From Nitrospirota bacterium (GTDB taxonomy: Bacteria; Nitrospirota; Nitrospiria; JACRHA01): DNA of 64,000 nucleotides. The stretch spans positions 5,553-69,552 of the forward strand of contig JACRHA010000056.1 of NCBI GenBank assembly GCA_016234185.1. The letters are read 5' to 3'. The translations under genes were made by a program, and so were the position numbers. Below the pieces are notes generated by a model. It made no database searches and was not told where the DNA came from. It was given only the letters and a program-made list of their open reading frames with translations. Shown here one piece after another: positions 5,731 to 60,766 of the stretch. Positions within the stretch are counted from its first letter, which is position 1, and the number at the start of each line of letters is the position of its first letter.

Positions 5731-5970
5731 GCGAACAACGTGAGCGTGTGAGGGGGAGGCTCCACAGGCTTTGCCGGTGGAGGGGGCGACGCTAGCCCCT
5801 GCAAATGAAAGCAGGAGTCAGGAGTCAGGAGAACAGTATTCAGTAGTCAGAATACAGGAGTCAGGAGGAAAGTCTAGAGCCTGAATATTCTAAACAGCGA
5901 GCGAATGCGAGCGTTGAGGGGGAGGCTCCATCCGGCTTTGCCGGTGGAGGGGGCGACGCTAGCCCCTTTA
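5731..5970. repeat. Two copies of the interspersed hairpin repeat (core GAGGGGGAGGCTCC..GCCGGTGGAGGGGGCGACG) separated by the AATGAAAGC-AGGAGTCAGGAGTCAGGAG module
   Basis: Cores sit at about 5745-5800 and 5908-5970. The same about 55-bp core recurs at least 12 more times in the window. Confidence 0.85.
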
Positions 5971-5976
5971 AAAAGG

Positions 5977-8769
5977 ATGGATCATAAATTAAGCCAGGCT
6001 TCTTGTATCTGCCTTATCTCTCTTTCTCTGTTTATTGCTTTAAATTTTACATCCCCCTTTCTCTATGCCTCTGAATCTAAAATGGAGGGCAAAAAGATTA
6101 CATCTATAGAGATAAAAACAGAAGGGGGTGAGAGGATAGAGTGGTTAAAGGATATGATAAGCATAAGGGAGGGGGATCTCTATTCCTCCAGGGCTGTAAG
6201 GAGGAGCCTTGACCAGCTTTATAAGGACGGGCGTTTTAAGGATATCATTATAGACGCAGAGCTTGCGGACAGAGGGGTTGTCCTGACCTATACATTGATT
6301 GAGAAGGAGATTATATCTGAGATTGTAATCTCTGGAAACTGGTTTGTAACAACAAAAGAACTCATGGAGAAGATAAGGGCGAGTGAAGGCGAGGAGATTA
6401 CAGATGACCTGTTAAGAGAGATATTGTCGGATCTGATCTCCTATTACCACAAAAAAGGTTTTTTCCATGCAGAGGTCGAAGAGGTGGTAAAGAGAGGAAG
6501 GGGGATAAAGGCCAGGACCCTGCTCAGGCTAAATATCAGGGAGGGAAAAAGGACAAGGATACGTGAGTTAAGATTCACAGGAGAGAGGGTCTACCCGGAT
6601 ATAAACCTCCTCTTCAAGATCAGGATGGGAAAGGGAGAGTTCTTTTCAGGCGAAACACTGGAGAGGGATATGGTGTCCCTGGAGAACTTCTATAAGGATA
6701 ACGGATATTTTAACGCGATTATCGGACCCCCGGAAGTTCAATACAATAAAGAATTAAACGAGGTAGATATACAGATACCAATAGAGGCAGGTCGTCATAC
6801 AAAGATCGTCTTTGAAGGAAACAGTGCACTTTCCAGGGATAAACTTGAACCGCTCCTTCTGATAAAAGAGGAAAGGAGTTCTGATGATGATGTACTGAAG
6901 GCCTCCATGGAGAGGATCGAGGGGCTTTATAAGACCAAAGGGTATATGTTGGCAAAGGCAGAATACACCGGGAATGTTAAACCCGAAATGAACGAGACAG
7001 AGATAGCGATTAAGATAATGGAGGGGAAAAAGGTCTCGTTAAGGGAGATCGTATTTGAGGGTAACAGTTATTTTTCCTCAAAGGAGTTAAAGAAATTGAT
7101 GGAACAAAAAGAAGAGGGTTATCTGTTCTCATCAATACTGGACAGGAATAAACTTGAGGACGATATGAACCGGATACAAGCCCTGTACTATAAGAACGGG
7201 TTTATCGGGGTGAAGATTAAAGAAGAGACCTACATAGATGACGCAAAAGAAAATATGGTTTTAATCCTGAAAATAGATGAGGGGGTACAAACCTTTGTTG
7301 ACAGGATAGAGATACATGGAAACAGGCTCTTTTCTGAAAAGGAACTTTTAGACAATATTCCCTTAAAACCCGGAGCGCCTTACCTGGAGACATCTGCCCG
7401 CGATGGACAGCTTAATATCCTGACGCTATACGCAAAGATGGGTTATATATATGCCAATGTCAATCTAAAACCGGTCTTAAGGGATGATCAGAGGGGGGTT
7501 GAACTTTTATATCTCATTGATGAAGACAGGCCTGCCTCTATTGGAAGGATAGTGACAAGAGGGAATGATTTTACAAGGTCAAGGGTAATCTTGAGGGAGC
7601 TTATTATTCACGAAGGCGAGCCATACGATTATGAGAAGATCCTAAGGAGTCAGCAAAGGATATATCAGTTGGGATTTTTCAGTGATGTGAGGGTAGAGCC
7701 CTTCAGGGCAGGAGAAAAAGAATATATTAAAGATATGGTAATTGCCGTCAAGGAAAAGAATGCAGGTGCAGTCGATTTTGGTATAGGCTATGGTGATGTT
7801 GAGAGGTTAAGGGGGTTTAGCGAGATATCTCAATCCAACCTGTTCGGGACAGGCAGATATGCGAGCTTAAGGGGTGACTTAAGCCGGATCGAGAGGAAGT
7901 TTTCCTTAAATTATAAGGAGCCGCGGGTCTTAAATCTCCCGGTAGATGCAAGGATCGGCCTGGTGGATCTTACACAGAAGAGGATCACCTCGGACACAAG
8001 GGATGTGCTCTATGAGCTAAGGCAGGCGGGAGGAACCCTCGGCCTGGATAAGGGCTTTACTCCATCTGTAAAGGGGTCTTTTCTCTACCAGTTTGAGGCC
8101 AATAAGCTGCTGGATGTTAAACCGGGCGCAGTCCTGGCGCCGGAGGATGAAGGAAGGGTAACCATAGGCAGTATTAATCTTTCGCTGGAGAGGGACAGCA
8201 GGGACGACCCATTCAATCCATCAAGAGGGTCGGTGAACGGAATCCTTCTTAAGGATGCAGCATTCTCCCTGGGATCCGATGTACAGTTTTTTAAGGCATC
8301 CCTTCAGAGCAGCTGGTATTTCCCGGTTACAAGATGGTTCGTCCTTGCCTTATCAGCGAAGGGCGGGGCTGCAAAGAATTTTGGCGAGACCCTTGCTGTC
8401 CCGATCAGCGAGAGATTCTTCCTGGGCGGGAGGAGCACGGTAAGGGGTTACCTGCAGGATTCGCTCGGTATCCCCGGCGTTACAGTAATAGACGGAACAC
8501 CTACCGGTGGAAATGCGATGCTCCTTGTAAATGGCGAATTCAGGATATCACTCTTTTGGGGATTGGGCCTTGTGACATTTCTCGATGGAGGCAACGTATG
8601 GCCGGAATACAACGAGATCAACGTCTCGGAGATGAAATATTCCGCGGGGGTCGGTCTAAGATACAATACCCCCATAGGGCCATTCAGGTTAGATTTAGGA
8701 TACAAGCTTGAGCCGGAGCCTGGTGAAAGCAGCTCAGAATTGCATTTTACCCTGGGTCATACCTTTTAA
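5977..8769 (+). CDS. bamA: Outer membrane protein assembly factor BamA
   Basis: POTRA repeats and a C-terminal surface-antigen beta-barrel ending LGHTF. The start is set to the ATG at 5977 (MDHKLSQ, signal peptide, AAAAGGA Shine-Dalgarno) because the upstream in-frame stretch is translated repeat element. Confidence 0.85.
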   Translation: MDHKLSQASCICLISLSLFIALNFTSPFLYASESKMEGKKITSIEIKTEGGERIEWLKDMISIREGDLYSSRAVRRSLDQLYKDGRFKDIIIDAELADRGVVLTYTLIEKEIISEIVISGNWFVTTKELMEKIRASEGEEITDDLLREILSDLISYYHKKGFFHAEVEEVVKRGRGIKARTLLRLNIREGKRTRIRELRFTGERVYPDINLLFKIRMGKGEFFSGETLERDMVSLENFYKDNGYFNAIIGPPEVQYNKELNEVDIQIPIEAGRHTKIVFEGNSALSRDKLEPLLLIKEERSSDDDVLKASMERIEGLYKTKGYMLAKAEYTGNVKPEMNETEIAIKIMEGKKVSLREIVFEGNSYFSSKELKKLMEQKEEGYLFSSILDRNKLEDDMNRIQALYYKNGFIGVKIKEETYIDDAKENMVLILKIDEGVQTFVDRIEIHGNRLFSEKELLDNIPLKPGAPYLETSARDGQLNILTLYAKMGYIYANVNLKPVLRDDQRGVELLYLIDEDRPASIGRIVTRGNDFTRSRVILRELIIHEGEPYDYEKILRSQQRIYQLGFFSDVRVEPFRAGEKEYIKDMVIAVKEKNAGAVDFGIGYGDVERLRGFSEISQSNLFGTGRYASLRGDLSRIERKFSLNYKEPRVLNLPVDARIGLVDLTQKRITSDTRDVLYELRQAGGTLGLDKGFTPSVKGSFLYQFEANKLLDVKPGAVLAPEDEGRVTIGSINLSLERDSRDDPFNPSRGSVNGILLKDAAFSLGSDVQFFKASLQSSWYFPVTRWFVLALSAKGGAAKNFGETLAVPISERFFLGGRSTVRGYLQDSLGIPGVTVIDGTPTGGNAMLLVNGEFRISLFWGLGLVTFLDGGNVWPEYNEINVSEMKYSAGVGLRYNTPIGPFRLDLGYKLEPEPGESSSELHFTLGHTF

Positions 8770-8779
8770 TTATGTAACT

Positions 8780-10168
8780 ATGGAAAACAGGACATTTAAC
8801 AGATCAATCAATCTGGCCATACTCATTCTTGCGGCGATAGCTATATATATCGGCTATTCCATATTTCATCAGGATGGAGATGAGGTCAGGATATATGAAA
8901 GTCCCCCTCCCCTGCCGGGTAAGAAAGAAGAAACCCCTAGAGAAAACCCTGTAGTACCGGCGCCGGAGACCAGGAGCAATACAATTAAAGACGATGCCTC
9001 AACAGATCTATTTAACGAGGAGGGACTCCGGTTTTATAACCAGGGGAGATATGAAGAGGCAGCAGATTCTTTCAGGAGGGCGCATGAGAAGGATAAAAAT
9101 AATGATGCCTTAAAGATGAACCTTGCCTACACTGAAAGCAGGCTTGGCTGGAGAGAGATAGAGGCAGGGAGATACGGGGAATCATTGAGATACTTCAGGG
9201 AGGCCATGGAGTTTAATGATAAAGTACCGGATTCATATTTCGGTATGGGGTTTGCCCTTCATAAATTAAAGGATGATGACAGGGCGATAGAGTCAATAAA
9301 CAGGGGACTGGCCATAGATCCAAAGAGGACAGAGGGGTACAAGTTGCTGGCAGAGATACATTATCATAAAGATAACACAGAGCTGGCTATTAGTAATCTT
9401 GAGGCAGCATTAAAGCTTGCCCCCAACGACAACAACCTGAAGGGAATGCTTACAAAGATCAACAGGGAGAAGAAAGCAGAAGGAGGCTTTCAGCAGGAGG
9501 CAACAGAACATTTTACAGTAAGGTTCGAAGGGAGGGAAGAGAGGGATATAGCCAGGGTAATAACCATTATCCTTGAAGAGGCATACAGGGAGGTCGGCGC
9601 CTCCTTCTCTTTTTATCCTGGGGATCCAACTACTGTCATCCTCTATTCCGAGGAAAAGTTCCGGGACGTAACGCTCACTCCTGCTTGGACAAAGGGTATA
9701 TTTGATGGTAAGATAAGGCTTCCCGTTGGAGGGGCATTAAACGATAAGGAACTCCTTGAAAAGGTAATCTTTCATGAATATACACACGCTGTCATCCACA
9801 ATATCTCAGGTAAGGATGTCCCGCGGTGGCTGAATGAGGGTCTGGCCGTATATATGGAGCATGGGGATAAGGAGAGGCTTGAAGAGAGAATAATCAGTGA
9901 AATAAAAAAAGGCGGCAGGATAATCCCGCTGCATGAACTCCATGATTCCTTTATGGACAGCGAAGAATCAAGGGTGCCCATCCTTTATGCCGAAAGTTAT
10001 TCTGCTGTGGATTATCTGATAGATAGATACGGGATATTCAGGGTAAAGATCCTTCTTGAAGAGCTCTCCAGGGGGAGGGAGTTTAAGGAGGCATTCAGGG
10101 ATCTCTTTTTTATATCCTATGACGAATTCCAGTCCGCCTGGGAAAAGTCGATAATGAACAGGGTTTAA
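8780..10168 (+). CDS. Membrane-anchored TPR-repeat protein with a C-terminal peptidase MA-like (HExxH) domain
   Basis: N-terminal TM helix, TPR-like repeats, and an HEYTHAV...NEGLAVY zincin-like motif. Confidence 0.6.
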   Translation: MENRTFNRSINLAILILAAIAIYIGYSIFHQDGDEVRIYESPPPLPGKKEETPRENPVVPAPETRSNTIKDDASTDLFNEEGLRFYNQGRYEEAADSFRRAHEKDKNNDALKMNLAYTESRLGWREIEAGRYGESLRYFREAMEFNDKVPDSYFGMGFALHKLKDDDRAIESINRGLAIDPKRTEGYKLLAEIHYHKDNTELAISNLEAALKLAPNDNNLKGMLTKINREKKAEGGFQQEATEHFTVRFEGREERDIARVITIILEEAYREVGASFSFYPGDPTTVILYSEEKFRDVTLTPAWTKGIFDGKIRLPVGGALNDKELLEKVIFHEYTHAVIHNISGKDVPRWLNEGLAVYMEHGDKERLEERIISEIKKGGRIIPLHELHDSFMDSEESRVPILYAESYSAVDYLIDRYGIFRVKILLEELSRGREFKEAFRDLFFISYDEFQSAWEKSIMNRV

Positions 10169-13051: not shown

Positions 13052-13120
13052 GACAATGTCAAATTTCAAAGTTCAAAGTTCAAAAATTTGGCATTTGGAT
13101 TTTGACATTTGAACTTTTTT
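13052..13120 (+). terminator. Imperfect hairpin followed by a T-run after the kinase gene
   Basis: AATGTCAAA...TTTGACATT arms, followed by GAACTTTTTT. Confidence 0.3.
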
Positions 13121-14504: not shown

Positions 14505-14660
14505 AGGTTATACCAATTCGCATTCAACAGGATACCAAGGCGGCGAGGAGGCACGAAGAAGGCTGAGGCTGAGGTTGAGGCTAAGAAGTTCCTAAACCTT
14601 AACCTTGACCTCAACCTGTTTTTTTCCAGGTAGCCGAATGAAGGCAAATTGGTATTAGTT
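14505..14660. repeat. MITE-like composite element with terminal inverted repeats TACCAATTCGCATTC / GAATGAAGGCAAATTGGTA enclosing an aggttgagg / cctcaacct hairpin plus T-run
   Basis: Inverted 25-30 bp ends at 14506-14530 and 14629-14658. The internal hairpin at 14551-14627 is followed by TTTTTTT and probably also terminates ntrX transcription. Confidence 0.4.
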
Positions 14661-17835: not shown

Positions 17836-18053
17836 GGACACCATATCTGATGCTTAAGAGTATGGATAAGATGCCTCAAATTTCTGATGCAATTAGTCAG
17901 CCATTTTCTGATATAATATTTACAAATAGTTAAAGGGCCGTAGTGATAGAATTCGCAAATGTATGGGGTCAGCGCAAATGTATGGGGTCACCCATTAAAA
18001 GGCACCCATTAAAAGGTCTTGGAATATAAGATTAGTTCTGTTACAGACTGTAC

Positions 18054-19044: not shown

Positions 19045-19074
19045 AGGTAGCCGAATGAAGGCGAATTGGTATTA
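19045..19074. repeat. Solo copy of the 30-mer GGTAGCCGAATGAAGGCGAATTGGTATTAG (right end of the 14505-14660 element)
   Basis: Matches 14629-14658 at 29 of 30 positions. Confidence 0.5.
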
Positions 19075-21701: not shown

Positions 21702-22057
21702 TTGACTGTCTCTGCCTGTTTCTTCTCTTCCTCTTTCAAAAAGATCTTCAAGTCACCATACAGCGACCAGAAGAGTTTTATTGCCCGCTCACCCTCATCG
21801 GTAATAATAGCCCCTCCTCCACTTCGCCCGCCTGTCCTGGTCTCAACCAGTTTCTTTTTTGAAAGCCTGTTCATTGATTCTACAAGCTCCCAGGCACGCC
21901 TGTACGACATATCCATTGACCGTGCTGCCATGCGTATCGAGCCATATTTCTTGATCAGCTCCAACAGGATTACCCTGCCATATCCTATATATGTCTCTCC
22001 CCTATTTTCTACCCAGATCCTCCCATTTACTGTGTATCTATCCTTCGACTTCTTCAT
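21698..22057 (-). CDS. ModE N-terminal-domain-like winged-helix regulator
   Basis: YIGYGRVILLELIKKYGSIRMAARSMDMSYRRAWELV matches HTH_ModE. It overlaps the modA start (ATGA). Confidence 0.7.
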   Translation of the reverse strand: MKKSKDRYTVNGRIWVENRGETYIGYGRVILLELIKKYGSIRMAARSMDMSYRRAWELVESMNRLSKKKLVETRTGGRSGGGAIITDEGERAIKLFWSLYGDLKIFLKEEEKKQAETVK

Positions 22058-44928: not shown

Positions 44929-44995
44929 AAATAAAAGCCAAGGTTGAGGTTAAGGCTAAGGTTAAGGTTTCAGGTTTTCTCAGCCTCAACCTAAA
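44929..44995. repeat. aggttgagg...cctcaacct hairpin repeat (second copy of the family seen at 14551-14627), terminator-like between cheB and cheR
   Basis: AAGGTTGAGGTTAAGGCTAAGG...CTCAGCCTCAACCTAAACCTTAACCTGTTTT. Both copies end in AACCTGTTTT. Confidence 0.4.
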
Positions 44996-46498: not shown

Positions 46499-48139
46499 TT
46501 AAGCAGCTCTTCTCTGAGAAACCTCATACAGACCCTCCCTTTGCTTGAATGACTTATCGTTGTTATCAGAGTTGATCTTAAACTTGCCCACCACCTCCAT
46601 TAACTCCAAGCCCATTTTGGCAAGGATCTGAGAGGCCGACATGACATTAGCCGCCCCTTCAGCCGTGCCCTTGGAGGCTGTTGCCACCCCGGCAATGCTC
46701 TGAACCACTTCACCTGTGCCTTTGGCTGCCTCCGTCATATTCCGGCTTATCTCATTGGTGGTCACCGCCTGCTCTTCGACTGCCCCTGCGATAGTCATTG
46801 AAATCTCGTTGATCTTGGTAATAATCTGCCCGATCTCCCCGATAGCCGAGACGGCCCCCCTGGTATCTGTCTGGATCGCCTCGATCTTCCGGCTGATCTC
46901 TTCTGTGGCCTTGGCTGTTTCTTTGGCCAGATCCTTTACCTCATTAGCCACCACGGCGAATCCCTTTCCTGCCTCTCCTGCCCTGGCCGCCTCAATGGTT
47001 GCATTGAGGGCAAGGAGGTTTGTCTGCTGGGCAATTGATGTAATAACCTTGATTACCTTCCCGATCTCAGCGCTCGATTCACCAAGCTTTGAGATAATGG
47101 CATTAGTCGATTGCGCAGCCGACACCGCCTGGGTAGTAACACTTGTCGCCTCCTGGACATTTTTCGATATCTCCTTGATTGTAGCCGTCATCTCCTCTGC
47201 CGCAGTGGCAACTGTCTGGACATTCCTGTTTGTCTGCTCGCCTGCGGCTGAGACTGAAGTTACCTGGCGGTTTGTCTCCTCTATGTTAGCTTCGACATGT
47301 TTACTGAATGCAGCCAGCTCTTCAGATGTTGTAGAGATCTGGCTCGAACCATGTTGAATACCGGAGATCATTTCGCGTAGCCCCGCGACCATAGCGGAGA
47401 AGGACCGGCTTAGCGCCCCGATCTCATCATTACCTCCGGCCTTCACCTCAATAGTAAGATCGCCGGCAGCAATCCTTTCAGCGACCGAGGCCAGGTTGCG
47501 CAGCGGGTGAACGATAGCCCTTCCCAAAAGGACCACCAGCGCCGTCCCGAGCAGGATTATTCCGATAGTGATCCAGAGGGTGATACCCTTGAAACTTTTT
47601 GCCAGCCGGCCCAGTCCCTCAATTCCGGTCTTAAAGGTATTGTCCTTACCCTTGGTATATTCATCGAGGCGCTGCCTGAGTTCAGTGGCTGTATTGCTGA
47701 ATTTTCCCGTTTCTTGTTCTGCCATGCCGATATTTTTTCTGGCCATAAGTGTGGCCGCGATCTTCTGACCCAGGTCAAAATATGTTTTATAAAGGGCTTC
47801 AATCTCGGCAAGCTGTTTACTATCCTCCCCTGACAACTTCTTTAGCCGCTCCAGCGCGGCCATAAATCCTGTTCCTATCTCTTTGGCTTTTTCAAGTTTC
47901 ATCTGATCATTAAAACTGATCGCCTCTGTAAACAGCTCGGATATCCTTTTTAAATCTTCTTCCAGCACTACGCCTTCTTTGTATGGGAGGTAAGCCTTCT
48001 CCTGGAGCTGAACTGCAAGAGAGAGCATCCGGACACCCCCTGAATAACTGTAAACGGCCAGCATCAGGAAGACGATCAACATTAAGACATAACTGCCGAT
48101 GATCTTGTGTTGGATTCTTAAGGAATTTATGTTAAGCAT
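46499..48139 (-). CDS. Methyl-accepting chemotaxis protein (HAMP plus MCP signalling domain)
   Basis: Its conserved signalling domain is near-identical to that of the MCP at 40103. Confidence 0.85.
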
Positions 48140-50430: not shown

Positions 50431-52773
50431 CTACACCCTTGCCTCTTCCATCCACCCCGGTTCAACGCCTTCGATCACCTGGTCTATATTGAGCAGGTCG
50501 GTTGTCATCCCCTCAATAACCAAAGATCCGGCTACCCCTGTCTTGCCTGGCGGGGGAGGATGGAGCACCGACTCTGCCTCAACGATATCGAGTATCCTGT
50601 CTACCACCAGCCCGACATTCTTCTTTTTTCCGGAAAATACAATAGTAGGCAGCATCTCCCGGTTTTGGTCAGGGGAATCTATACCAAGGATCCTGTCAAG
50701 CCGGATCAACGGAAGAAGACCCCCACGGTATTGAATTATGTCCCGTCCGGCAGCCTGTTCAACCCTGTTTAGGTAAAATTCCTCCAGTCGGTCAACCAGG
50801 GCCAGAGGGACTGCAAACCGGTCATTCCCTGAGGCAGAAAAGAGGATCAGCGTATGATGTTCAATCCCTGATCCATCTTCCGTACTATCTTCTAATGTTA
50901 ATTTGGTCTCACCAGCCTTAGACTGAAGAAACCCTCCCTCCTTGGCAACCCCCTGTACATCCAGTATAAGGGCCACCCTTCCATCACCCATGATCGTTGC
51001 GCCTGCAAATACTGAAAGCCCTTTTAACTGCCTGCTCAATGGCTTAACTACGATCTCCTCGCTATTGTTTACCGCATCAACCACAAGCCCGAAGGGACGT
51101 TCTCCAGCCTTAAGGACAACTATGCTGGTATTAGATGTTTCTGTAGGGGCACATTGCAATGTGCCCCTACCTTCTTCCAGGCAAAGGAGTCGATTGAGGT
51201 AAAGAATAGGAAGGAGCGTTCCCCGCAACCTATAAAAGCTGGCGTCGTGGATCACTTCGATCCGGCCGCCAGACTCAGGATCTACCCGGACAAGCTCAAG
51301 CAGACTTGCCTGCGGGATCGCAAAGAGCTCCTTTCCTGCCGCAACCATCAGGGCCGGGATTATTGCCAGCGTCAATGGTATCTTAATTCTAAGGCTTGTG
51401 CCCTGCCCAAGCCTGCTTGTCATTTCCACTGTCCCACCTATCTTTTCTATATTTGTCCTGACTACATCCATACCGACACCGCGGCCCGAGACATTTGTTA
51501 CCTTCTCAGCAGTTGACAGCCCCGGCAGAAAGATAAGGTTTAGGGCCTCACGCTCCGACATGCGGGATACAGCCTCAGCAGAGACGAGACCCTTCTCAAT
51601 GGCCTTGCGCTTGACCTTCTCTATATCAATACCATTTCCGTCATCTCCGATCTCTATATTGATCTGGCCTCCTTCGTGGTATGCCTTAAGATTGAGCATC
51701 CCCTTTGGTCCCTTCCCCCTTGCCCTCCTCATATCAGGGGTCTCAATCCCATGATCTACGGAATTCCTGACAATATGTGTCAGGGGGTCTTTAATCGCCT
51801 CTAACAGGGTCTTGTCCAACTCAGTCTCAGCCCCGTCCATGACAAGTTCAACCTCTTTGCCATTTGTCTTGGCAAGGTCCCTCACCAGGCGCGGGAATTT
51901 CTCCCAGACATTCAGAATCGGCTGCATCCTGGTCTTCATTACAGCATCCTGGAGCTCTGTTGTAATCAGATTCATCCGCTGGGCAGTGCCTGCATACACA
52001 GCATTATCCTCTTCCCTTACCCGCTGTAAGAGCTGATTTCGCGCAAGCACAAGCTCACCGACTAAATTCATTAATTTATCGAGGAGGCCGACGTCCACAC
52101 GGATGGAAGATTCCGCGGACACAAGACCTCTATTTTGTGACATAACAGCTTTGCTTTCTTCCTGACTTCTGACTCCTGACGGCTCGACTGAGCTCGCCGA
52201 AGTCTCCTGACTCCCGCTTTCATTAGCAGGGGCTTGCGTCGCCCCCTCCAAAGGCAAAGCCTTTGGAGCCTTCCCCTCAACGCTCGCATCCGCTCGCTGT
52301 TTAGAGGATTCAGCATCCAGGATACCTTTCTCCTTTCTCCTGACTCCTGACGGCTCGACTGAGCTCGCCGAAGTCTCCTGACTCCCGCTTTCATTTGAAA
52401 TAAGCGTCTTCAGCTTCTGTAGTATAGAATTATAATCCTGGGCAGGCTCGGATCCTTTAGACTCTATGTGGGACAGGATTTCCTTTATGGTATCAACCGC
52501 CTCAAGGAGGATTGTAACCCCCTCCGGCGTCACAGGCATCTTTCCGTCCCGCATCATCGAGAGGACATCTTCACCGCCATGGGCAACAGACTCAAGCTTC
52601 GGAAGTCCAAGAAAACCACAAGTTCCCTTAATGGTATGTATAGTGCGAAAGATACTCGCGATAAGGGCTCTGTTCCCTGTCTCCTTTTCAAGTAAAACAA
52701 ACTCCTGATCAAGCCTTCCCAGACCTTCATAACTTTCAACCAGGAATTCCTTCAAGATGCCGTCATCTTCCAT
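50431..52773 (-). CDS. cheA: Chemotaxis histidine kinase CheA, carrying in-frame repeat-element insertions in a linker
   Basis: Hpt (P1), dimerisation, HATPase and CheW-like (P5) domains. The linker contains a duplicated ESGSQETSASSVEPSGVR around a translated repeat core. Confidence 0.9.
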   Translation of the reverse strand: MEDDGILKEFLVESYEGLGRLDQEFVLLEKETGNRALIASIFRTIHTIKGTCGFLGLPKLESVAHGGEDVLSMMRDGKMPVTPEGVTILLEAVDTIKEILSHIESKGSEPAQDYNSILQKLKTLISNESGSQETSASSVEPSGVRRKEKGILDAESSKQRADASVEGKAPKALPLEGATQAPANESGSQETSASSVEPSGVRSQEESKAVMSQNRGLVSAESSIRVDVGLLDKLMNLVGELVLARNQLLQRVREEDNAVYAGTAQRMNLITTELQDAVMKTRMQPILNVWEKFPRLVRDLAKTNGKEVELVMDGAETELDKTLLEAIKDPLTHIVRNSVDHGIETPDMRRARGKGPKGMLNLKAYHEGGQINIEIGDDGNGIDIEKVKRKAIEKGLVSAEAVSRMSEREALNLIFLPGLSTAEKVTNVSGRGVGMDVVRTNIEKIGGTVEMTSRLGQGTSLRIKIPLTLAIIPALMVAAGKELFAIPQASLLELVRVDPESGGRIEVIHDASFYRLRGTLLPILYLNRLLCLEEGRGTLQCAPTETSNTSIVVLKAGERPFGLVVDAVNNSEEIVVKPLSRQLKGLSVFAGATIMGDGRVALILDVQGVAKEGGFLQSKAGETKLTLEDSTEDGSGIEHHTLILFSASGNDRFAVPLALVDRLEEFYLNRVEQAAGRDIIQYRGGLLPLIRLDRILGIDSPDQNREMLPTIVFSGKKKNVGLVVDRILDIVEAESVLHPPPPGKTGVAGSLVIEGMTTDLLNIDQVIEGVEPGWMEEARV
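52161..52395. repeat. Hairpin repeat core flanked by two direct copies of the approximately 58-bp module CTGACTCCTGACGGCTCGACTGAGCTCGCCGAAGTCTCCTGACTCCCGCTTTCATT, all inside cheA
   Basis: The core at 52228-52300 has arms CTCCAAAGGC/GCCTTTGGAG instead of CTCCACCGGC/GCCGGATGGAG. The substitutions are compensatory and preserve the stem. Confidence 0.85.
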
Positions 52774-53012
52774 TTAAACCTCCCCATGAGAACTTAATTA
52801 TCTTATCGGAAAATCAAGGAAAATCTTTAGCTTCCGGGTCCTTATGAAATGGGTGTGCGACATAAATGTTGATATGTTTAACAGATTCATCGTAGGGGCA
52901 GACCTATGTGTCTGCCCTGGAAATGTCTCCGTCGATCCCAAAGAGGGCGAACACAGAGGTTCGCCCCTACATAAAGGGATCTTTATGCTATCCTCTTGGG
53001 GCAACTACTTTT

Positions 53013-53717
53013 TTATGGAATCCTATCCACACTTACAACTACTATCTCTACCCGGCGGTTCTTTGCCCTGCCCTCCGGCGAATCATTGGTATCGATCGGT
53101 CTGAATTCGCCATACCCGGCCACAGAAAAACGTTGAGGATCCATTGCATGGCGGTCGACAAAATACCTTACAATACTCATTGCCCTGCCAGTTGACAGTT
53201 CCCAGTTGGATGGGAAGGCCGGTGTCTTGATAGGTATATTATCGGTATGCCCCTCGACCTGGACGGGGTTCGGAAGGGCGGCTATAAGATCTGCTATCTT
53301 ATCAAGTTTTTCGCTGAACACCGGGAGAATCTCTGCCTGACCCGTTTCAAAGGCAAGACTGTTCTCGATCCTTATCACTGTACCCCGCCGGTCTTTAATC
53401 AGACTGATCTGCCCGGAAGGGTCCATTGTCCTGACCTCCTCCTCCATCTTCCTGTATTTAAAAAAAAGTTTGAGGCCGGTATCAAACATGGCAGTCCCGG
53501 ATTGTTTAGAGGTCAGTCTTATATTTGAAGAGGAGAGAGCGATAACGGGGTGAAATGCCTCATTCACGGAATCGGAAACTGCACGATACTTACCCTCATG
53601 GACTGATGATGTAGAATACATCACCACAAAGAATGCAAAGAGGAGCGTGATAAAATCGGCATAGGAGATCAGCCAGCGCTCTTGATTTTCATGTTCTTCT
53701 TCCTTTTTTTTCCGCAT
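53013..53717 (-). CDS. motB: Flagellar motor stator protein MotB (OmpA-like C-terminus)
   Basis: WLISYADFITLLFAFFVVMY plug/TM region and a C-terminal OmpA-like peptidoglycan-binding domain. Confidence 0.85.
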   Translation of the reverse strand: MRKKKEEEHENQERWLISYADFITLLFAFFVVMYSTSSVHEGKYRAVSDSVNEAFHPVIALSSSNIRLTSKQSGTAMFDTGLKLFFKYRKMEEEVRTMDPSGQISLIKDRRGTVIRIENSLAFETGQAEILPVFSEKLDKIADLIAALPNPVQVEGHTDNIPIKTPAFPSNWELSTGRAMSIVRYFVDRHAMDPQRFSVAGYGEFRPIDTNDSPEGRAKNRRVEIVVVSVDRIP

Positions 53718-53730
53718 CTTTCCTCCTTTT

Positions 53731-54174
53731 TTAAGGGGCTTGCGTCGCCCCCTCCACCGGCAAAGCCGGATGGAGCCTCCCCCTCAACGCTCGCTTTGCT
53801 CGCTTTAAGGGGCTTGCGTCGCCCCCTCGCCTATCTCAGGGGAGCGACCGTCCCCCTCCACCGGCAAAGCCGGATGGAGCGCTTCGGCTGAGCTCAGCGT
53901 CGAAGCCCTCCCCCTCCCTACGCTCGACTCCGCTCGCTGTTATAAATTCAGGGGAGCGACCGTCCCCCTCCACCGGCAAAGCCGAAGCGAGCATCCGGCT
54001 TGGCCGGTGCAAGCGCGGGGTGTAGGGGCATCGGAGGAGCAACTGCACCGCACGGGCCCCCACAGATGATCGTCGCCTCCCCCTCAACGCGCGCCCTGCC
54101 CGCTGTTTAGAAGATTCAGAATCCAGACTTTCCTCCTGCACCCTGACCCCTGCACCCTGCTTTCATCAGGGTAT
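53731..54174. repeat. Cluster of about four tandem or variant copies of the hairpin repeat between motB and motA
   Basis: AGGGGCTTGCGTCGCCCCCTCCACCGGCAAAGCCGGATGGAGCCTCCCCCTCAACGCTCGC plus GGGGAGCGACCGTCCCCCTCCACCGGCAAAGCCGGATGGAGC variants. Ends with a GGGTATCTAC tail. Confidence 0.85.
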
Positions 54175-54942
54175 CTACTTTTTGGGTCTCTTCTTCTGTG
54201 CCTCTGTCAGGAAGCCTTCCAGTTTTTCCTGGATCATCCGCGGGTTATCCCCTGCAGCAATGGACATTATCCCTTCAATAATCAGCTCACGGCTGATCCC
54301 TTCCATCCGGTTCCTCATCTTCAGCTTTCCTGCGATCGGGAGGAAGATCAGGTTTGCCGTTAAGACACCATATACCGTGGCAACAAAGGCTGTAGCGATC
54401 CCGCTTCCCAGCTTTGTCGGATCTGCAAGGTTCTCCATCACATGGATCAGCCCCATTACAGCGCCAAGGATCCCGAATGTCGGACAATAACCGCCGGCGG
54501 CCTCAAATAATTTTGCCGCCATTGCATAATGCTCCTCTCCAAAGGAGAGTTCCACCTCGAGTATCTCGCGGATCAGCTTTGGCTCGGTCCCATCCATCAA
54601 AAGCTGTAATCCCTTCTTTAAAAAAGGGTCCTTTATCTCCTTAATCTTCGACTCAAGGGCCAGGATCCCCTGCTTCCGGACAACATTGGCATATTCCACA
54701 ATCTTTTCTATGAAGGCGACTGCATTATTATTTGGCGCCTTGACGGCCTCCAGCCCTAACTTCATCGCCTCAAGGAACTTAGGAAGTGTAAATTGAACCA
54801 TCACCGCACCCATTGTTCCCCCTAATACGATAATAGCAGCGGTAAATTGGAGGATTGAGTGGACACTCCCCCCTTCCAAGGCCTGTCCCCCAACAAGTGC
54901 GCCCAGCCCAACAACCACACCGATGACCGTAAGGATATCCAT
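54175..54942 (-). CDS. motA: Flagellar motor stator protein MotA
   Basis: MotA/TolQ/ExbB proton-channel family, four TM helices. Confidence 0.85.
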   Translation of the reverse strand: MDILTVIGVVVGLGALVGGQALEGGSVHSILQFTAAIIVLGGTMGAVMVQFTLPKFLEAMKLGLEAVKAPNNNAVAFIEKIVEYANVVRKQGILALESKIKEIKDPFLKKGLQLLMDGTEPKLIREILEVELSFGEEHYAMAAKLFEAAGGYCPTFGILGAVMGLIHVMENLADPTKLGSGIATAFVATVYGVLTANLIFLPIAGKLKMRNRMEGISRELIIEGIMSIAAGDNPRMIQEKLEGFLTEAQKKRPKK

Positions 54943-54967
54943 AGATCAATCAAACCTGTCTATTTCC

Positions 54968-55125
54968 AGGGGCTTGCGTCGCCCCCTCCACCGGCAAAGC
55001 CGGATGGAGCCTCCCCCTCAACGCTCGACTCCGCTCGCTGGGTTAACACCCACTTTCAGGAGCTTGCGTCGCCCCCTCCCTGCCTGCCGACAGGCAGGGC
55101 TAGGTAGATACCCGATGGTATCTAC
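54968..55125. repeat. Hairpin repeat copy plus a variant copy with palindromes CCCTGCCTGCCGACAGGCAGGG and GTAGATACCCGATGGTATCTAC
   Basis: Sequence identity to the repeat family. Confidence 0.8.
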
Positions 55126-55226
55126 TTTTCTCTATCTCCTATCGGCAAATTTTAAGCTTATCTTTAGTGCTTCCAGGATAGATAAATAAGGTACAGGTAC
55201 GGTTTGAGACATCATATTATATTAAT

Positions 55227-55254
55227 TTGACAAGGGATCATCTTCAGATATAAT
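55227..55254 (+). promoter_or_regulatory. Sigma70-like promoter TTGACA-N16-TATAAT upstream of bioB
   Basis: TTGACA at 55227-55232 and TATAAT at 55249-55254. The bioB ATG at 55266 leaves a very short leader. Confidence 0.35.
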
Positions 55255-55265
55255 CTAATAATCCC

Positions 55266-56270
55266 ATGGATGTCATATTAAACGATATTATTGATAAACT
55301 TGAAGGGGTTGGGTCCCTATCAAAGGATGAGGCCTTGTACCTTGTCAGCCTCGATGATATCAGTCTCATCTCTTCCCTTGCCGAAAAGGCAAGGAGAAGA
55401 TATAAGGGCAACCTTGCCGATCTCTGCTCTGTAATAAGCGCCAAATCCGGTTCATGTCCGGAAGATTGTGCCTTTTGCGCCCAGTCGGTCCATTACCAGA
55501 CCGGGATAATGGAGTATCCATTGATCCGGGTAGATAAGATCGTCAAGGCCGCCGCTGATGCAAAAAAAAATGGCGCAAGGAGGTTCTGTATATCAACCAG
55601 CGGCAGGGGGACCGGGAAGGATGATGAGATTTCAAGTATATGTGAGGCGATAAAAAAAATAAGGAATGAGGTTTCAATCTCGCCCTGCGCAACCCTCGGT
55701 TTAATGTCTTCTGACCATCTAAGGGCCTTAAAAGAGGCCGGATTAAACAGATACCATCATAACCTTGAGACATCGGAAGGCTATTACCAAAAGATATGCA
55801 CGACCCACTCTTTTTCTGAGAGGGTGGAGATGGTAAAGAAAGTTAAGGAGTCAGGGCTCTCCGCATGTGTTGGGGGGATATTGGGGATTGGAGAATCTAT
55901 GGAGGATAGGGCCGATCTTGCTGTCGCTATCAGGGACCTCGATCCCGATTCTGTGCCCATAAATTTCCTGATGCCGATTATAGGTACCCCGCTTGAAGGT
56001 ACAGCCGGACTTGGACACGATGAGGCATTAAGGTCTATTGCGCTATTTAGGTTCATTATGCCTTCAAAAGAGATAAGGGTCTGCGGCGGCAGGGTCTCTG
56101 CCCTCGGTGAATCCCACAGACTGATATTCAACTTTGGGGCTGACGGCATGATGGTCGGAAACTATCTCACCAGGTCCGGCGTCGATCCCAAAGAAGATCT
56201 GAGGATGCTCAATGATCTCAGCCTTGGTATTAGAGAGATAGATGTTTCCGGGCGAGATATCCAGGCTTAA
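55266..56270 (+). CDS. bioB: Biotin synthase
   Basis: Radical SAM CPEDCAFC motif and the auxiliary-cluster cysteines. Confidence 0.9.
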   Translation: MDVILNDIIDKLEGVGSLSKDEALYLVSLDDISLISSLAEKARRRYKGNLADLCSVISAKSGSCPEDCAFCAQSVHYQTGIMEYPLIRVDKIVKAAADAKKNGARRFCISTSGRGTGKDDEISSICEAIKKIRNEVSISPCATLGLMSSDHLRALKEAGLNRYHHNLETSEGYYQKICTTHSFSERVEMVKKVKESGLSACVGGILGIGESMEDRADLAVAIRDLDPDSVPINFLMPIIGTPLEGTAGLGHDEALRSIALFRFIMPSKEIRVCGGRVSALGESHRLIFNFGADGMMVGNYLTRSGVDPKEDLRMLNDLSLGIREIDVSGRDIQA

Positions 56271-56343
56271 AGCGAGCAAAGCGAGCGTTGAGGGGGAGGC
56301 TCCGTCCGGCTTTGCCGGTGGAGGGGGCGACGCAAGCCCCTTT
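56271..56343. repeat. Hairpin repeat copy in the bioB-bioF intergenic region
   Basis: AGCGAGCAAAGCGAGCGTTGAGGGGGAGGCTCCGTCCGGCTTTGCCGGTGGAGGGGGCGACGCAAGCCCCT. Confidence 0.85.
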
Positions 56344-56367
56344 AAAGCGAAAAACCTTCTCCGCAGA

Positions 56368-57476
56368 TTGTTAGTTGTCGAACCGGGGGAGGGGTCAGGT
56401 CTTGTCATTGATGGAAAGAGGGCAGTGAACCTCTCTTCAAATAATTATCTTGGTCTTTCAAACCACCACAGGATAAAAGACGCATCTATCAGGGCCATAG
56501 AAAGATATGGTGCCGGGGCAGGGGCATCAAGGCTCATCTCAGGTCACACGAATATCATAAAAGAACTTGAAGAAAGGATCGCCAGGTTTAAATCAACTGA
56601 GGCGGCCCTTGTCTTTGGATCGGGCTACCTGGCCAATATCGGGATCATCCCATCCATAGTAGGCGATGGAGACGTCATCATTGCAGACAGACTGAATCAT
56701 GCGTCTATCTTTGAGGGGTGCAGGATCAGCAGGGCAAGGCTATTAATATACAGACACAAAGATATGACCCAGCTTGAGGAGATACTTAACAGGTATTCAT
56801 CATATAAGAGGAAGCTGGTTATTACCGATGGTCTTTTCAGTATGGATGGTGATATTGCCCCGTTAAATGATATCGTCTCTCTTGCAAAGAGGTATGAGGC
56901 GATGGTGATGGTCGATGATGCCCACGCAACAGGGGTTTTAGGAAAGAGCGGCAGGGGCACTATGGAGCATCTCGGGATAAAGGATGGGGTTGACATCCAG
57001 ATGGGGACATTGAGCAAGGCGATCGGGTGCTATGGCGGATTTGTTGCAGGGGATAATGCACTTATAGATTATTTAATAAACAGGGCAAGGTCGTTTATAT
57101 TCACAACAGGACTTCCACCGGCTATTGCTGCTGCGGCCATTGCCGCATTCGACATCATTGAAGAGATGCCTGAGATAAGGGAGAGGTTATGGGAGAATAG
57201 AGGATACTACTTTAAGGCCGTAACAGGACTTGGCCTTGATACAGGGATGAGCGAGAGCCAGATAATACCAATCATGATTGGAGACGAGAAGAGGGGACTT
57301 GAGTTCTCAGAAAGACTCCTTGAATTAGGCGTTTTTGCGCCTGTAATTAGGCCTCCCACTGTACCTAAAGGTAAGACAAGGATCAGGACATCTATAATGG
57401 CCACCCATACAAAGGAGGAGATTGATACAGGTGTAGATGCCTTAAAGAGGGCAGGAAGGGAGCTTGGGATTATTTC

Positions 57477-57480
<4 letters not shown>
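56368..57480 (+). CDS. bioF: 8-amino-7-oxononanoate synthase
   Basis: PLP-dependent aminotransferase class II (NNYLGLS..., DGLFSMDGD, PPTVP). The ORF track start at 56242 translates the repeat, so the in-frame TTG at 56368 is the likelier start. Confidence 0.8.
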
Positions 57481-59002
<1,522 letters not shown>

Positions 59003-59010
59003 AGGTTTTG

Positions 59011-59043
59011 AAGAACCCTCCAAAAAATGCGGAGGGTTCTTCA
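59011..59043. terminator. Perfect 12-bp-stem hairpin GAAGAACCCTCC-aaaaaatgc-GGAGGGTTCTTC between convergent bioD and ppi genes
   Basis: Perfect inverted repeat in a convergent intergenic region. No strong T-run. Confidence 0.4.
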
Positions 59044-59078
59044 TCGCGAGGTAGAGATATGCTAGATCTTTACCCTTG

Positions 59079-59582
59079 TCACTTCATTGTCACCTTCTTC
59101 ATCACATCCCCTTTTGCAATCTTCTGCACCACATCTATCCCCTTTATCACCTGCCCAAAGACGGTATAGTTCCCGTCAAGGGTAGGTTGATCACCCAGAC
59201 AGATATAGAATTGGCTGTCAGCGCTGTCGGGGTTTTGTGCCCGTGCCATGGCCACTGTTCCAAAGACATGCTTCTTGCTGTTGAATTCTGCAGATAGCTT
59301 CTTCCCTGAGCCTCCTGTGCCGTCACCCTTAGGATCACCGCCCTGTATTACAAACCCGGGAACTATCCTGTGAAATGTAAGGCCATTGTAAAAACCCTGT
59401 TTCACAAGTTCTGTGATCCTCGCAACAGTCTTTGGTGCGACATCCGGATACATCTCGAATACTATCTCCCCCTTATCTGTCTCTATTGATACCATTGGTG
59501 CCTTCTTCTCCTTTTCTGCTGCAAAAAGATTTGGCGCAGCTATTAAACAGGTTATTAATAATACAAGAAAAAATCTACTCAT
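59079..59582 (-). CDS. ppiB: Peptidyl-prolyl cis-trans isomerase, cyclophilin type (secreted)
   Basis: Signal peptide, then cyclophilin motifs (FHRIVPGFVIQGGDP, GTVAMAR). Confidence 0.85.
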   Translation of the reverse strand: MSRFFLVLLITCLIAAPNLFAAEKEKKAPMVSIETDKGEIVFEMYPDVAPKTVARITELVKQGFYNGLTFHRIVPGFVIQGGDPKGDGTGGSGKKLSAEFNSKKHVFGTVAMARAQNPDSADSQFYICLGDQPTLDGNYTVFGQVIKGIDVVQKIAKGDVMKKVTMK

Positions 59583-59608
59583 ATCTCCTCCTTTGTCGTC
59601 TTCGCTAT

Positions 59609-60541
59609 TTAATGGGTGCATCTCTTGTTGTAGGCATCCATAATAAGGCCCTCTCTGAGCCCATAATCACTAACAACTAATGAATCATGACCCATCTCCT
59701 CCATTATGGTTATAAGAATCGCTGTTCCGGCCACTATAATATCCTCCCTTCCCGGCTCGAGTCCTTTAATCGTCCTCCTCACCTTGATCGATTTGGAAAC
59801 CAGGTCTGATAATATCGCTCTTATCGATGCGAGCTTTAAGATGCAGTTATTGATCCGGAGAGGATTATATACCTCCATCTTCCGGTCTATGGCCGCCAGT
59901 GTAGTTATGCTCCCAGCTGTACCTACCAATATTGATCCTTCAATGCCTTTTGATTGCTCAGAGACCATTTTTATCTTCGCCATAATTTCCGAATCCATGG
60001 ATGAAAGCTCAGATGGAAGGATAGGGTCACTTTTTAAATGTCTTTCAGTCAGATTTACTACCCCGAGGTCTATGCTTATTCTTGAAAGGATCTCACCTCC
60101 ACTCCCAAATATAAACTCTGTTGACCCTCCACCTATATCTATGGCAACGATATTATGTATCCTTTTATCTAACCCATGGAGGATACCGAGGAACGTCCTC
60201 CTCGCCTCCTCCTTTCCAGAGATCACCTCTATGTCAAATCCTGTCTCTTTTTTTACAAGGTCAATAAAATATTGACGGTTTTCTGCGGCTCTTACAGCGC
60301 TTGTTGCAGCTACAACAACCTCGTTGACCATATATCTGTCAATAATCGTCCTGAAGTCTTTGAGGGTTGAGACGGTTCTGATTATAGCATTATTAGTCAG
60401 GCGGCCTGAGCCTGACAAACCCTCGCCGAGGCGGGTTATCATTCTTTCTGAATGTATCTCCTTAAAATGGTGCTTACCAATTTCAGTGATTAGGAGCCTT
60501 AAGGTGTTGCTACCTATATCTATGCCGGCTATAACTGCCAA
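59609..60541 (-). CDS. ppx: Ppx/GppA family phosphatase (exopolyphosphatase / pppGpp phosphohydrolase)
   Basis: AGIDIGSNTLRLLI N-terminus, the ASKHA fold signature of Ppx/GppA. Confidence 0.85.
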   Translation of the reverse strand: MAVIAGIDIGSNTLRLLITEIGKHHFKEIHSERMITRLGEGLSGSGRLTNNAIIRTVSTLKDFRTIIDRYMVNEVVVAATSAVRAAENRQYFIDLVKKETGFDIEVISGKEEARRTFLGILHGLDKRIHNIVAIDIGGGSTEFIFGSGGEILSRISIDLGVVNLTERHLKSDPILPSELSSMDSEIMAKIKMVSEQSKGIEGSILVGTAGSITTLAAIDRKMEVYNPLRINNCILKLASIRAILSDLVSKSIKVRRTIKGLEPGREDIIVAGTAILITIMEEMGHDSLVVSDYGLREGLIMDAYNKRCTH

Positions 60542-60550
60542 TTTTTTGGT

Positions 60551-60766
60551 CTATCTCAGGGGCTTGCGTCGCCCCCTCCACCGGCAAAGCCGGATGGAGC
60601 CTCCCCCTCAACGCTCGCATCCGCTCGCTGTTTAAAAGATTCGGAATCCAGACCTTCCTCCTGACTCCTGACTCCCGCTTTCATTAGGGGCTTGCGTCGC
60701 CCCTACAACTCAGCGCTCGCCTTGCTCGCTAGGTAGATAGCCACTGGCTTGCCCGTGGCTATCTAC
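60551..60766. repeat. Hairpin repeat copy, AATGAAAGCGGGAGTCAGGAGTCAGGAG module, second partial core, and GTAGATAGCCACTGGCTTGCCCGTGGCTATCTAC palindrome
   Basis: Sequence identity to the family. Reverse orientation. Confidence 0.85.

Follow-up and report, generated by a model that had tools for sequence, protein, structure and literature searches.

The DNA analysed here (hereafter the window) is a stretch of 64,000 nucleotides from a Nitrospirota bacterium (contig JACRHA010000056.1, positions 5,553 to 69,552). Among its genes are tamB and bamA; bioB, bioF and bioD together with a short-chain dehydrogenase gene; ppx; a cluster for chemotaxis and motility (cheA, cheW, a methyl-accepting chemotaxis protein (MCP) gene, motA, motB and two flagellar rod-family genes); and other housekeeping genes. 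The BioD encoded here and MBI5746064.1, from a Nitrospirae metagenome-assembled genome (MAG), are identical. A cyanobacterial origin, which the heptamers and the GC content had suggested, was rejected on the gene content and this BioD match. Between and within these genes lies a short repeat that we call the A unit. We found that it forms three hairpins maintained by compensatory change, and that units and their sub-modules have been gained and lost at orthologous sites among close relatives. We consider it likely that the repeat is a new family of non-autonomous mosaic hairpin DNA modules, similar to the repetitive extragenic palindromic sequences (REP) and bacterial interspersed mosaic elements (BIME) or to the small dispersed repeats (SDR) of cyanobacteria, and the 84-nt three-hairpin unit is apparently so far undescribed. 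An original prediction had proposed, from the letters of the window, a hairpin-forming family resembling REP or miniature inverted-repeat transposable elements (MITE); the observation is confirmed and its main interpretation is supported.

Copies and modules of the repeat in the window

The 24-nt arm-loop-arm core from which the family had been recognised, CTCCATCCGGCTTTGCCGGTGGAG, occurs 9 times in the window when up to 3 mismatches are allowed, against 0 in 100 shuffles. Repeat finding returned a repeated stretch of 74-113 nt on both strands, longer than CTCCATCCGGCTTTGCCGGTGGAG. The window was searched, with filters off, with a covariance model (R1) made from 115 distinct copies (alignment A1). 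This gave 9 full hits (53-95 bits) and 6 partial or interrupted ones, which correspond to 14 units and a solo P3 module. The family of at least 13 copies is real, since all 13 positions noted before fall inside these hits, and copies occur in both orientations, as had been claimed. The proposed core is also real, but it is too short, the true unit being about 84 nt long with three hairpins.

The A unit reads (A)CCA, P1, (T)TGA or AGA, GGGGGAGG, P2, P3 and a TATA-like tail, with GAGGGGGAGG as the spacer located 3' of P1 and before P2. P1 is GCGAGC-(3-5 nt)-GCGAGC and has six pairs, of which the central two are tandem G.A/A.G mismatches. P2, a hairpin of 10-11 bp, consists of CTCC, an inner stem of 5-7 bp, a loop typically of 3-5 nt (consensus TTT) and GGAG; its inner stem varies by lineage, and each genome tends towards its own dominant inner stem. 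P3 is GGGGC-GACGC(A/G/T)A-GCCCC, a 5-bp stem with a 7-nt loop. Minimum free energy folds recovered all three hairpins on the sense strand in most copies. The flanks hold family-level motifs only, ...ATCTAC-CCA on the 5' side and TATA(A/T)...AGA on the 3' side. As a speculation, the mirror repeat GGGGGAGG...GGAGGGGG might form a G-quadruplex or H-DNA.

Several accessory modules are associated with the unit, namely a P0 hairpin (consensus GTAGATAnCC...GGnTATCTAC), which accompanies only about a third of copies, a B module with a (GAGTCAG)n array, small hairpins (about 24 nt, stem 6 bp) and a module about 91 nt long. Units lacking P2 are present, and solo P3 modules are found at further loci. Some copies have further hairpins nested in the loop of P2 or P3 or in the spacer. 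The window and three metagenome copies (L204, L206 and L217) have small hairpins akin to the 24-nt module between GAGG and CTCC, and in the metagenome copies the stems of these hairpins covary. The second module to which the core had been said to be joined, AATGAAAGCGGGAGTCAGGAGTCAGGAG (AATGAAAGCGGGAGTCAGGAG...), is indeed present, nearly intact at 5804-5831 and 60658-60685 and twice more in cheA, where each copy is split by a 24-nt hairpin. The parts are as follows, with bit scores from R1.

5726-5810, + strand: A unit (P1-P2-P3) with a partly decayed P2 (ACAGGC/GCCGGT), right after the tamB stop codon; 83.9 bits
5804-5891, + strand: B module, made of AATGAAAGCAGG, a (GAGTCAG)n array (5812-5867) and a GATTC-type palindrome
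5836-5855, + strand: small hairpin GTATTC-AGTAGTCA-GAATAC, inserted in the heptamer array of the preceding B module
5892-5977, + strand: A unit, apparently about 10 nt 5' of an ATG at about 5978; 91.8 bits
27327-27412, + strand: A unit beginning 3 nt past the stop codon of a CitMHS-family transporter gene; 92.1 bits
52160-52395, - strand: composite of B module, A unit and B module in the cheA linker (Hpt/dimerisation domains), translated in frame
52218-52302, - strand: A unit of the cheA composite, of the subfamily with P2 AAAGGC/GCCTTT; full model hit
52181-52204 and 52352-52375, - strand: 24-nt hairpins, one in each cheA B module
53724-53808, - strand: A unit upstream of motB; 94.5 bits
53809-53825, - strand: solo P3 module GGGGCGACGCAAGCCCC; partial model hit (model positions 57-73)
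53828-53941, - strand: A unit with the P3 variant GGGGA-CGGTCGC-TCCCC; partial or interrupted model hit at 53828-53904
about 53880-53904, - strand: nested hairpin of about 24-27 nt, between the G-rich spacer and P2 of the 53828-53941 unit
53940-54108, - strand: A unit with its 5' P2 arm swapped for the module of about 91 nt (53985-54075); partial or interrupted model hits at 53940-54012 and 54014-54108
54958-55043, - strand: A unit about 25 nt 5' of the motA ATG; 85.7 bits
55048-55127, - strand: P2-less unit, CCCTGCC-TGTC-GGCAGGG and P3; partial or interrupted model hit at 55048-55101
55102-55127, - strand: P0 hairpin GTAGATACC-CGAT-GGTATCTAC, preceding the P2-less unit at 55048
56267-56351, + strand: A unit at the bioB stop and bioF start; 92.7 bits
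58373-58460, + strand: A unit in frame within bioD, with the P3 variant GGGGA...TCCCC; 53.5 bits
60548-60633, - strand: A unit whose P3 ends about 16 nt 5' of the ppx start codon; 88.6 bits
60634-60766, - strand: B module (60634-60685) and P2-less A unit (60676-60734); partial model hit at 60676-60734
60733-60766, - strand: P0 hairpin GTAGATAGCCAC-N10-GTGGCTATCTAC

As had been predicted, copies occupy intergenic spacers, tandem or nested clusters (mosaics) and coding regions, the last in frame within cheA, bioD and the annotated N-terminus of bioF, where they contain no stop codons. All copies in the window share the strand of the surrounding genes, and their orientation turns to + across the 4-kb bio operon, which is itself embedded among - strand genes. 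Some copies abut the signals of the adjacent genes. The P3 of the unit at 53724-53808 stops 16 nt 5' of the motB ATG, with an AAGGAGG ribosome-binding site directly after it. The ATG at about 5978 is taken to be the bamA start, and the listed open reading frame (ORF) at 5905-8769 begins inside the A unit. At the 27327-27412 copy, which is also found at the orthologous site in locus L050, the TAG stop codon of the transporter gene falls within the boundary motif TTAGATACC. Downstream of this copy, a Fic/DOC family gene at 28024-28665 (- strand) is convergent to the transporter gene.

By our reading of the sequence, the B-module copy at 60634-60685 is without the hairpin found at 5836-5855. Heptamer arrays were observed at three places in the window, (CAGGAGT) in about 8 copies at 5812-5867, (TCAAAGT) in about 4 at 13059-13084 and (TACCCTG) in about 4 at 45610-45636. 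They resemble the short tandemly repeated repetitive (STRR) sequences of cyanobacteria, and the one at 5812-5867 hosts small hairpin insertions; a related array lies in the cheA linker, where its copy number differs among three related genomes.

Compensatory change in the stems

We scored 21 pairs in a model-based alignment of 123 copies (A2), using as controls shuffles and pairings in which the partners were slid by 1-3 columns. Pairing was found in 90.3% of cells, compared with 80.9% in shuffles, and 14 of the 21 pairs had changes on both sides. Cells with a double change numbered 192, against 43 in shuffles (none of 500 shuffles reached 192) and 23-37 with slid partners. Covariation is seen at each of the six P1 pairs and each of the five inner P2 pairs. 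In about 35 copies the tandem G.A/A.G of P1 is replaced by Watson-Crick pairs at exactly both positions, which fixes the pairing register of P1. P3 hardly varies; its one compensated variant is GGGGA...TCCCC. A second sample (A6), collected from metagenomes with P1 + AGCCCCT as the anchor and the core left free, gave 69 double-change cells against 11.7 in shuffles and 5-17 with slid partners. Model-fitted alignments lean to the structure of the model, but the slid controls and plain MAFFT/RNAalifold alignments nonetheless agree. Within genomes, deviations of a stem from the local consensus kept the pairing in 61 cases and broke it in 14.

The strand that folds can be read from the wobble pairs. 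G.U pairs outnumber A.C pairs by 51 to 12 in the first sample and by 20 to 12 in the metagenome sample, and this excess points to the sense strand as the one that folds.

The original prediction had argued for selection on the hairpin from the arms of the cheA copy, CTCCAAAGGC/GCCTTTGGAG, read as a perfect compensatory change, and had suggested a covariance model as the test. Covariation, strong in two independent samples, extends far beyond that single case. The cheA arms themselves are present, but they are not a compensatory change that arose in place, since the same AAAGGC/GCCTTT subfamily is shared by copies in other MAGs (L011, L019 and L045).

Gain, loss and distribution of the units

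Relatives with the same bio-motAB-cheA synteny were available in CAYZUL010000024.1 (L110 and L113, on one contig) and CAZYNY010000048.1 (L114). At bioB/bioF the window has a 75-nt insertion where the L110 allele is empty, with flanks about 95% identical over the aligned stretch, and R1 has no hit at this junction in L113 or L114. The insertion is bordered by a direct repeat, TTAAAG(CGA), the first copy of which holds the bioB stop codon, and it lengthens the annotated N-terminus of BioF by 25 residues in frame. The inserted copy shares 98% identity with the one before motB, 2.5 kb away on the opposite strand. In bioD, an in-frame segment of 28 amino acids (84 nt) is present in the window and four relatives and absent from four others (P0006/L109, P0007/L112, P0008 and P0010); one of the filled relatives has a second copy in a different reading frame. 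The bioD indel is 28 amino acids in L110 and L111, and in the window its 5' junction is remodelled.

The motility genes vary in the same manner. The cheA A unit is found in the window and L114 and is absent from L113, and the cheA hairpin at 52352-52375 is absent from L114. The motA-motB spacer of the window has five modules, that of L113 one and that of L114 two; upstream of motA the three genomes have three different mosaics. The A unit before motB is kept at the same site in L113 and L114. The motA/motB spacers of the three genomes have their outer boundaries in common, GTAGATACC on the 5' side and P3 with its tail before the start codon on the 3' side, and in the motA-motB spacer the TAG of GTAGATACC is the stop codon of the upstream gene. 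The GC-rich module of about 91 nt (CGACGATCATCTGTGGGGGCCCGTGCGG...GGATGCTCGCTT) lies in the motA-motB spacer of the window (53985-54075) and upstream of motA in L113 (about 8170-8260), and this presence at different loci in two related genomes suggests that it is another mobile passenger. Sub-modules of 17-24 nt occur alone, nest in one another and insert into heptamer arrays. A comparison of related strains had been proposed as a check, and presence/absence differences were found at bioB/bioF, bioD, cheA and motA-motB, which shows recent activity.

A scan for the exact core, with one genome per species and all counts taken among the matches listed, found more than 108 loci in roughly 50 species-representative assemblies. 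About 18 of these are labelled Nitrospirota, including a 4.6-Mb Manganitrophaceae chromosome, and about 21 are labelled Deltaproteobacteria, Syntrophorhabdus, Syntrophus or Syntrophobacterales, with a 3.2-Mb Syntrophorhabdus aromaticivorans UI scaffold and Mb-scale long-read contigs among the carriers. Single assemblies carry the (unverified) labels Acidobacteria, Bdellovibrionales, Ignavibacteriales and Patescibacteria; in the Patescibacteria-labelled one, three copies lie around hrcA-grpE. In the sample anchored only on P1 + AGCCCCT, conservation is at least 90% at each position of GAGGGGGAGG, CTCC/GGAG and GGGGC-GACGC, and the unpaired core is conserved to this degree in assemblies labelled as several phyla. 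No copy of the A unit was found among 2.9 million viral contigs or the PLSDB plasmids, and a phage or plasmid vector was rejected on these zero counts.

Where the flanking genes are co-directional, copies were sense or antisense at 48 and 13 genome loci and at 34 and 10 metagenome loci, respectively, by heuristic gene calls (ORF length weighted by GC3-GC2). Combined, this gives 82:23, or about 78% sense (p = 6e-9); several of the antisense copies are backed by solid gene calls. The flip of orientation across the 4-kb operon of the window indicates that the bias tracks transcription and not replication. The next start codon lies at a median of about 40 nt and in many cases at less than 30 nt, and the previous stop codon is likewise near, both distances being loose. 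A strict 5'-UTR element is ruled out by the antisense and convergent copies and by these loose distances.

Possible origins of the repeat

Terminal inverted repeats were looked for at the copies and none were found; the complementarity between the two flanks of the same copy averaged 3.86 nt, against 3.72 nt for flanks of different copies. A closing stem or tRNA-like cloverleaf was rejected on the same comparison. Among 119 copies there was no excess of flanking direct repeats that would indicate a target-site duplication of 6 nt or more. Since it has no terminal inverted repeats and apparently no regular target-site duplication, the A unit is not a strict MITE. Of the MITE-like element that had been predicted, the recent activity and the non-autonomous nature stand, and the assignment to MITE in the strict sense does not.

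We hypothesise that a structure-specific enzyme acting in trans would make the new copies, recognising the sense strand in its folded form, as single-stranded DNA or possibly as RNA. Such an enzyme would read the invariant unpaired bases, while the sequence of the stems could drift freely. It is this combination of freely compensating stems, invariant unpaired bases and folding of one strand that suggests an enzyme of the general kind that acts on structured single-strand substrates, by analogy with attC sites, IS200/IS605 ends and REP. Insertions would occur at A/T-rich, T-A-R-A-like sites, most commonly at stop codons, before ribosome-binding sites and in the tails of earlier copies, and such a preference would account for the tandem and nested clusters at gene boundaries. 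Most surviving copies would be co-transcribed in sense, with RNA hairpins that may be harmless or mildly useful as intercistronic stabilisers or insulators, as in REP/BIME and BOX, while antisense copies, which have CCUCCCCC anti-Shine-Dalgarno-like runs, are probably selected against. The likeness to attC sites and to IS200/IS605 ends is a mechanistic analogy only and extends to the covarying stem, the invariant unpaired bases, one-strand folding and an orientation that follows the adjacent genes. In contrast to attC, the unit has no R/L box GTTRRRY, cassette arrays or integrase, and in contrast to IS200/IS605, no tnpA or tnpB was seen.

Several observations weigh against this interpretation. 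The mobilising enzyme is not in the window: no transposase or reverse transcriptase was found among the window genes or the checked neighbours (Pfam, selected neighbours), a regular expression for the HUH-Y1 motif had no match in the window and the fetched genome loci (about 0.9 Mb), and the genes neighbouring copies are housekeeping genes. The copies show neither a copy-specific target duplication nor a terminal inverted repeat, and the only clean fresh insertion, at bioB/bioF, a single case, does have the TTAAAG(CGA) repeat. Both collection scans used fixed anchors, and the copy numbers and the range are therefore to be read as at least those given; the phylum of the MAGs labelled Patescibacteria, Ignavibacteriales, Acidobacteria and Bdellovibrionales is an unverified label; and the orientation counts depend on heuristic gene calls. 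Moreover, the conservation of the unpaired bases, the 78% sense bias and the P3 kept before motA and motB would fit a functional RNA equally well.

This last point leads to the explanation of the repeat as a conserved structured RNA acting in cis, which function would maintain at every locus and whose spread would be secondary. It could be a platform for protein binding, an element that directs processing or stabilises the transcript, or a standby or decoy site for ribosomes on the two GGAGG runs. Its strong covariation in two samples, the excess of G.U over A.C on the sense strand and the unpaired bases conserved to at least 90% under several phylum labels would be expected of such an RNA, and so would the sense bias, the window orientation that follows local transcription and the retention of P3 with its tail directly before the motA and motB starts in three genomes while the upstream modules vary. 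We nevertheless regard it as unlikely, because copies are gained, lost, nested and sometimes antisense (about 22% in co-directional contexts, several with solid gene calls). They are also truncated, interrupted by hairpins and inserted in frame in coding sequence among close relatives, they are flanked by unrelated housekeeping genes, and their position relative to start and stop codons is loose. Rfam gave 0 matches at gathering thresholds over the whole window and, even at E <=5, nothing above chance level at 53600-55200; no tRNA or tmRNA was found as a known RNA identity for the repeat.

Two further transcriptional roles were considered for the unit. A promoter, suggested by the TATAAT-like tail and the 17-nt P3 as spacer, was rejected, the -35 position being not TTGACA-like and only TATA being conserved; a sigma-70 consensus scan of 52000-61000 (-35/-10, 16-18 nt spacing) called no A unit. 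An intrinsic terminator was rejected in the same region, with no T-run and no A unit called.

REP/BIME of Enterobacteria and Pseudomonas are among the closest counterparts. Like them, the A unit is a set of short GC-rich imperfect palindromes in many copies, mostly intergenic in operons, forming mosaics with conserved linkers, with compensated stems and co-transcription. Effects of REP on mRNA stabilisation and termination have been reported (PMC6006769; PMC3116915), and the REP/REPIN definition requires GT[AG]G 0-2 nt 5' of the hairpin foot (PMC6006769). The hairpins of the A unit have no GT[AG]G, their 5' contexts being CCA (P1), GAGG (P2) and GGAG (P3), while GTAG starts only the accessory P0 hairpin, as part of its stem. 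Judged by its sequence, the A unit is thus not a REP/REPIN as defined in PMC6006769.

It could still be proposed that the family is a classical REP/BIME-REPIN system moved by a REP-associated tyrosine transposase (RAYT; TnpA_REP, HUH Y1), with P0 as the true REP and the A unit as a conserved linker. The clustering of hairpin repeats as mosaics and the preferential folding of the sense strand would agree with this, and the P0 hairpins (GTAGATACC...GGTATCTAC) do bear the REP-typical GTAG/GTGG tetranucleotides (PMC6006769), but P0 goes with only about a third of the copies. Clustered copies have one orientation, head to tail, or stand singly, and do not form the inverted doublets of REPIN. REP are described as species-specific (PMC6006769), whereas the 26-nt core of the A unit is common to assemblies labelled as different phyla (roughly 50 assemblies among the matches listed); some copies are in frame in genes, with a clear sense bias, and neither a RAYT nor an HUH-Y1-like ORF was present in the window or the fetched loci (about 0.9 Mb). 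We give this explanation little chance. No insertion sequence was seen among the checked neighbouring genes. Two candidate sources of an enzyme were also rejected: the genes beside the inverted copy pairs at L006, L036 and L073, examined for a transposase, are housekeeping genes, and a 200-residue ORF at 60766-61368 is lipoprotein-like, with no Pfam family and no HUH motif.

The A unit seems, by analogy, to resemble the SDRs of Nostoc still more than it does REP/BIME mosaics. In 2008, Elhai et al. (Genome Res 18:1484) reportedly described in Nostoc punctiforme SDRs that are apparently mobile hairpins of about 17-27 nt with no known transposase, and these modules are said to insert into one another and into tandem heptanucleotide repeats. 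That study is cited in PMC3116915 and PMC2884548. By this description, P3 (17 nt), the 24-nt hairpin (6-bp stem, 7-nt loop) and P2 (about 24 nt) are SDR-like, as is the presence of modules alone, nested, and inside (GAGTCAG)n arrays and the A unit. Unlike in SDRs, three modules are fixed as an 84-nt composite that travels together, and whereas the SDR hosts are cyanobacteria, those of the A unit are MAGs labelled Nitrospirota and Deltaproteobacteria. A literature search gave no relevant match to the sequence of the unit, nor to REP together with Nitrospirota or Desulfobacterota.

Other families offer partial parallels. BOX is modular, and BOX, RUP and SPRITE cluster and insert into one another in intergenic regions, with stable transcript structures (PMC10969869). 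The A unit shares the clustering of these pneumococcal repeats, but its sequences and hosts are unrelated, and RUP is a MITE with terminal inverted repeats, which the A unit does not have. Rickettsia palindromic elements (RPE) are found in frame in unrelated housekeeping genes and translated as an extra peptide (PMC10969869), which is similar to the in-frame insertions in cheA, bioD and bioF. RPE, however, are about 150 bp long, restricted to Rickettsia and mostly intragenic, while the A unit measures 75-84 nt and is mostly intergenic.

Could the copies have arisen with no dedicated mobility, by tandem duplication, replication slippage at hairpins and ectopic gene conversion only? Tandem and nested clusters do exist, gene conversion could yield the common outer boundaries and different inner modules of the spacers of the three genomes, and there is neither target-site duplication nor terminal inverted repeat. 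The 75-nt gain at bioB/bioF, however, occurred at a site without an earlier copy and has its 98% match on the other strand at a distance of 2.5 kb, the bioD and cheA insertions are in frame, and the unit recurs in assemblies labelled as different phyla, all of which makes this origin quite improbable. Hardly credible is a retro-mobile element similar to a short interspersed nuclear element (SINE), in which the sense transcript is copied by a reverse transcriptase and integrated. It would explain the sense bias and would agree with the sense-strand G.U excess and with the co-transcription in operons inferred from position, but no reverse transcriptase was found among the checked neighbouring genes, there is no poly-A-like or templated tail, antisense copies exist, and we know of no bacterial system that works in this way.

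A bolder version of the family of mobile hairpin modules, which we hold to be doubtful, is that the A unit and the 17-24-nt sub-modules may be substrates of an unrecognised structure-specific system (a single-stranded DNA recombinase or RNA-templated copying) that subsurface Nitrospirota, Desulfobacterota and other phyla share through horizontal transfer. Its grounds would be the invariant unpaired bases, the freely covarying stems, the folding of a single strand and the orientation linked to transcription. If true, this would point to a general mechanism for moving hairpins of less than 30 nt, the same problem as that of SDRs, and an RNA role at gene starts might have been co-opted. To our knowledge, how such tiny elements move has been an unsolved problem since the 2008 description of the cyanobacterial SDRs. 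The usual view of small hairpin repeats is that of lineage-specific passengers; the 84-nt composite, by contrast, keeps its unpaired bases at 90% or more across phylum labels while the stems drift by compensation. A second, widely distributed small-hairpin system gives comparative leverage to find the enzyme by phyletic co-occurrence, and one of the hosts, Syntrophorhabdus aromaticivorans UI, is a named strain and not a MAG. In practice, such repeats break short-read assemblies, inflate ORF calls and yield hypervariable spacers and linker peptides, and they would serve as good strain markers.

Other sequence features were observed in the window and in the collected loci. A family seen in the metagenome loci L134, L172, L201, L216 and others has a P1-like start, CAGCGAGCCGCAGGCGAGCGGAGTCAA, continues with a CCCCGG-rich part that ends with GAAGCCCCT, and may be a sister family assembled from similar modules. 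A second hairpin-forming family, made of runs of AGGTTG/AGGCTG hexamers and their complement, is present at 14560-14617 and 44947-45004, at a distance from the A units; in L114 it fills the spacer upstream of motA and the one between motA and motB (about 7700-7800 and 8780-8900). At 55227-55254 on the + strand, 12 nt upstream of the bioB ORF, there is a perfect sigma-70 consensus promoter (TTGACA-16 nt-TATAAT). A 300-nt direct repeat of 76% identity (40148-40447 and 46529-46828) is located in two long - strand ORFs, the second of which encodes an MCP; these are probably paralogous MCP genes, outside the repeat family. A 31-nt repeat (14628-14658 and 19045-19075, 97% identity, 4.4 kb apart) and a perfect 19-nt tandem duplication, CGCAAATGTATGGGGTCAG, in two copies at 17954-17990, are both unrelated to the A unit. 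Finally, the GC content reaches 54% at 22001-24000, compared with about 46% elsewhere, over an ORF at 22227-23831 that may be a foreign or highly expressed gene.

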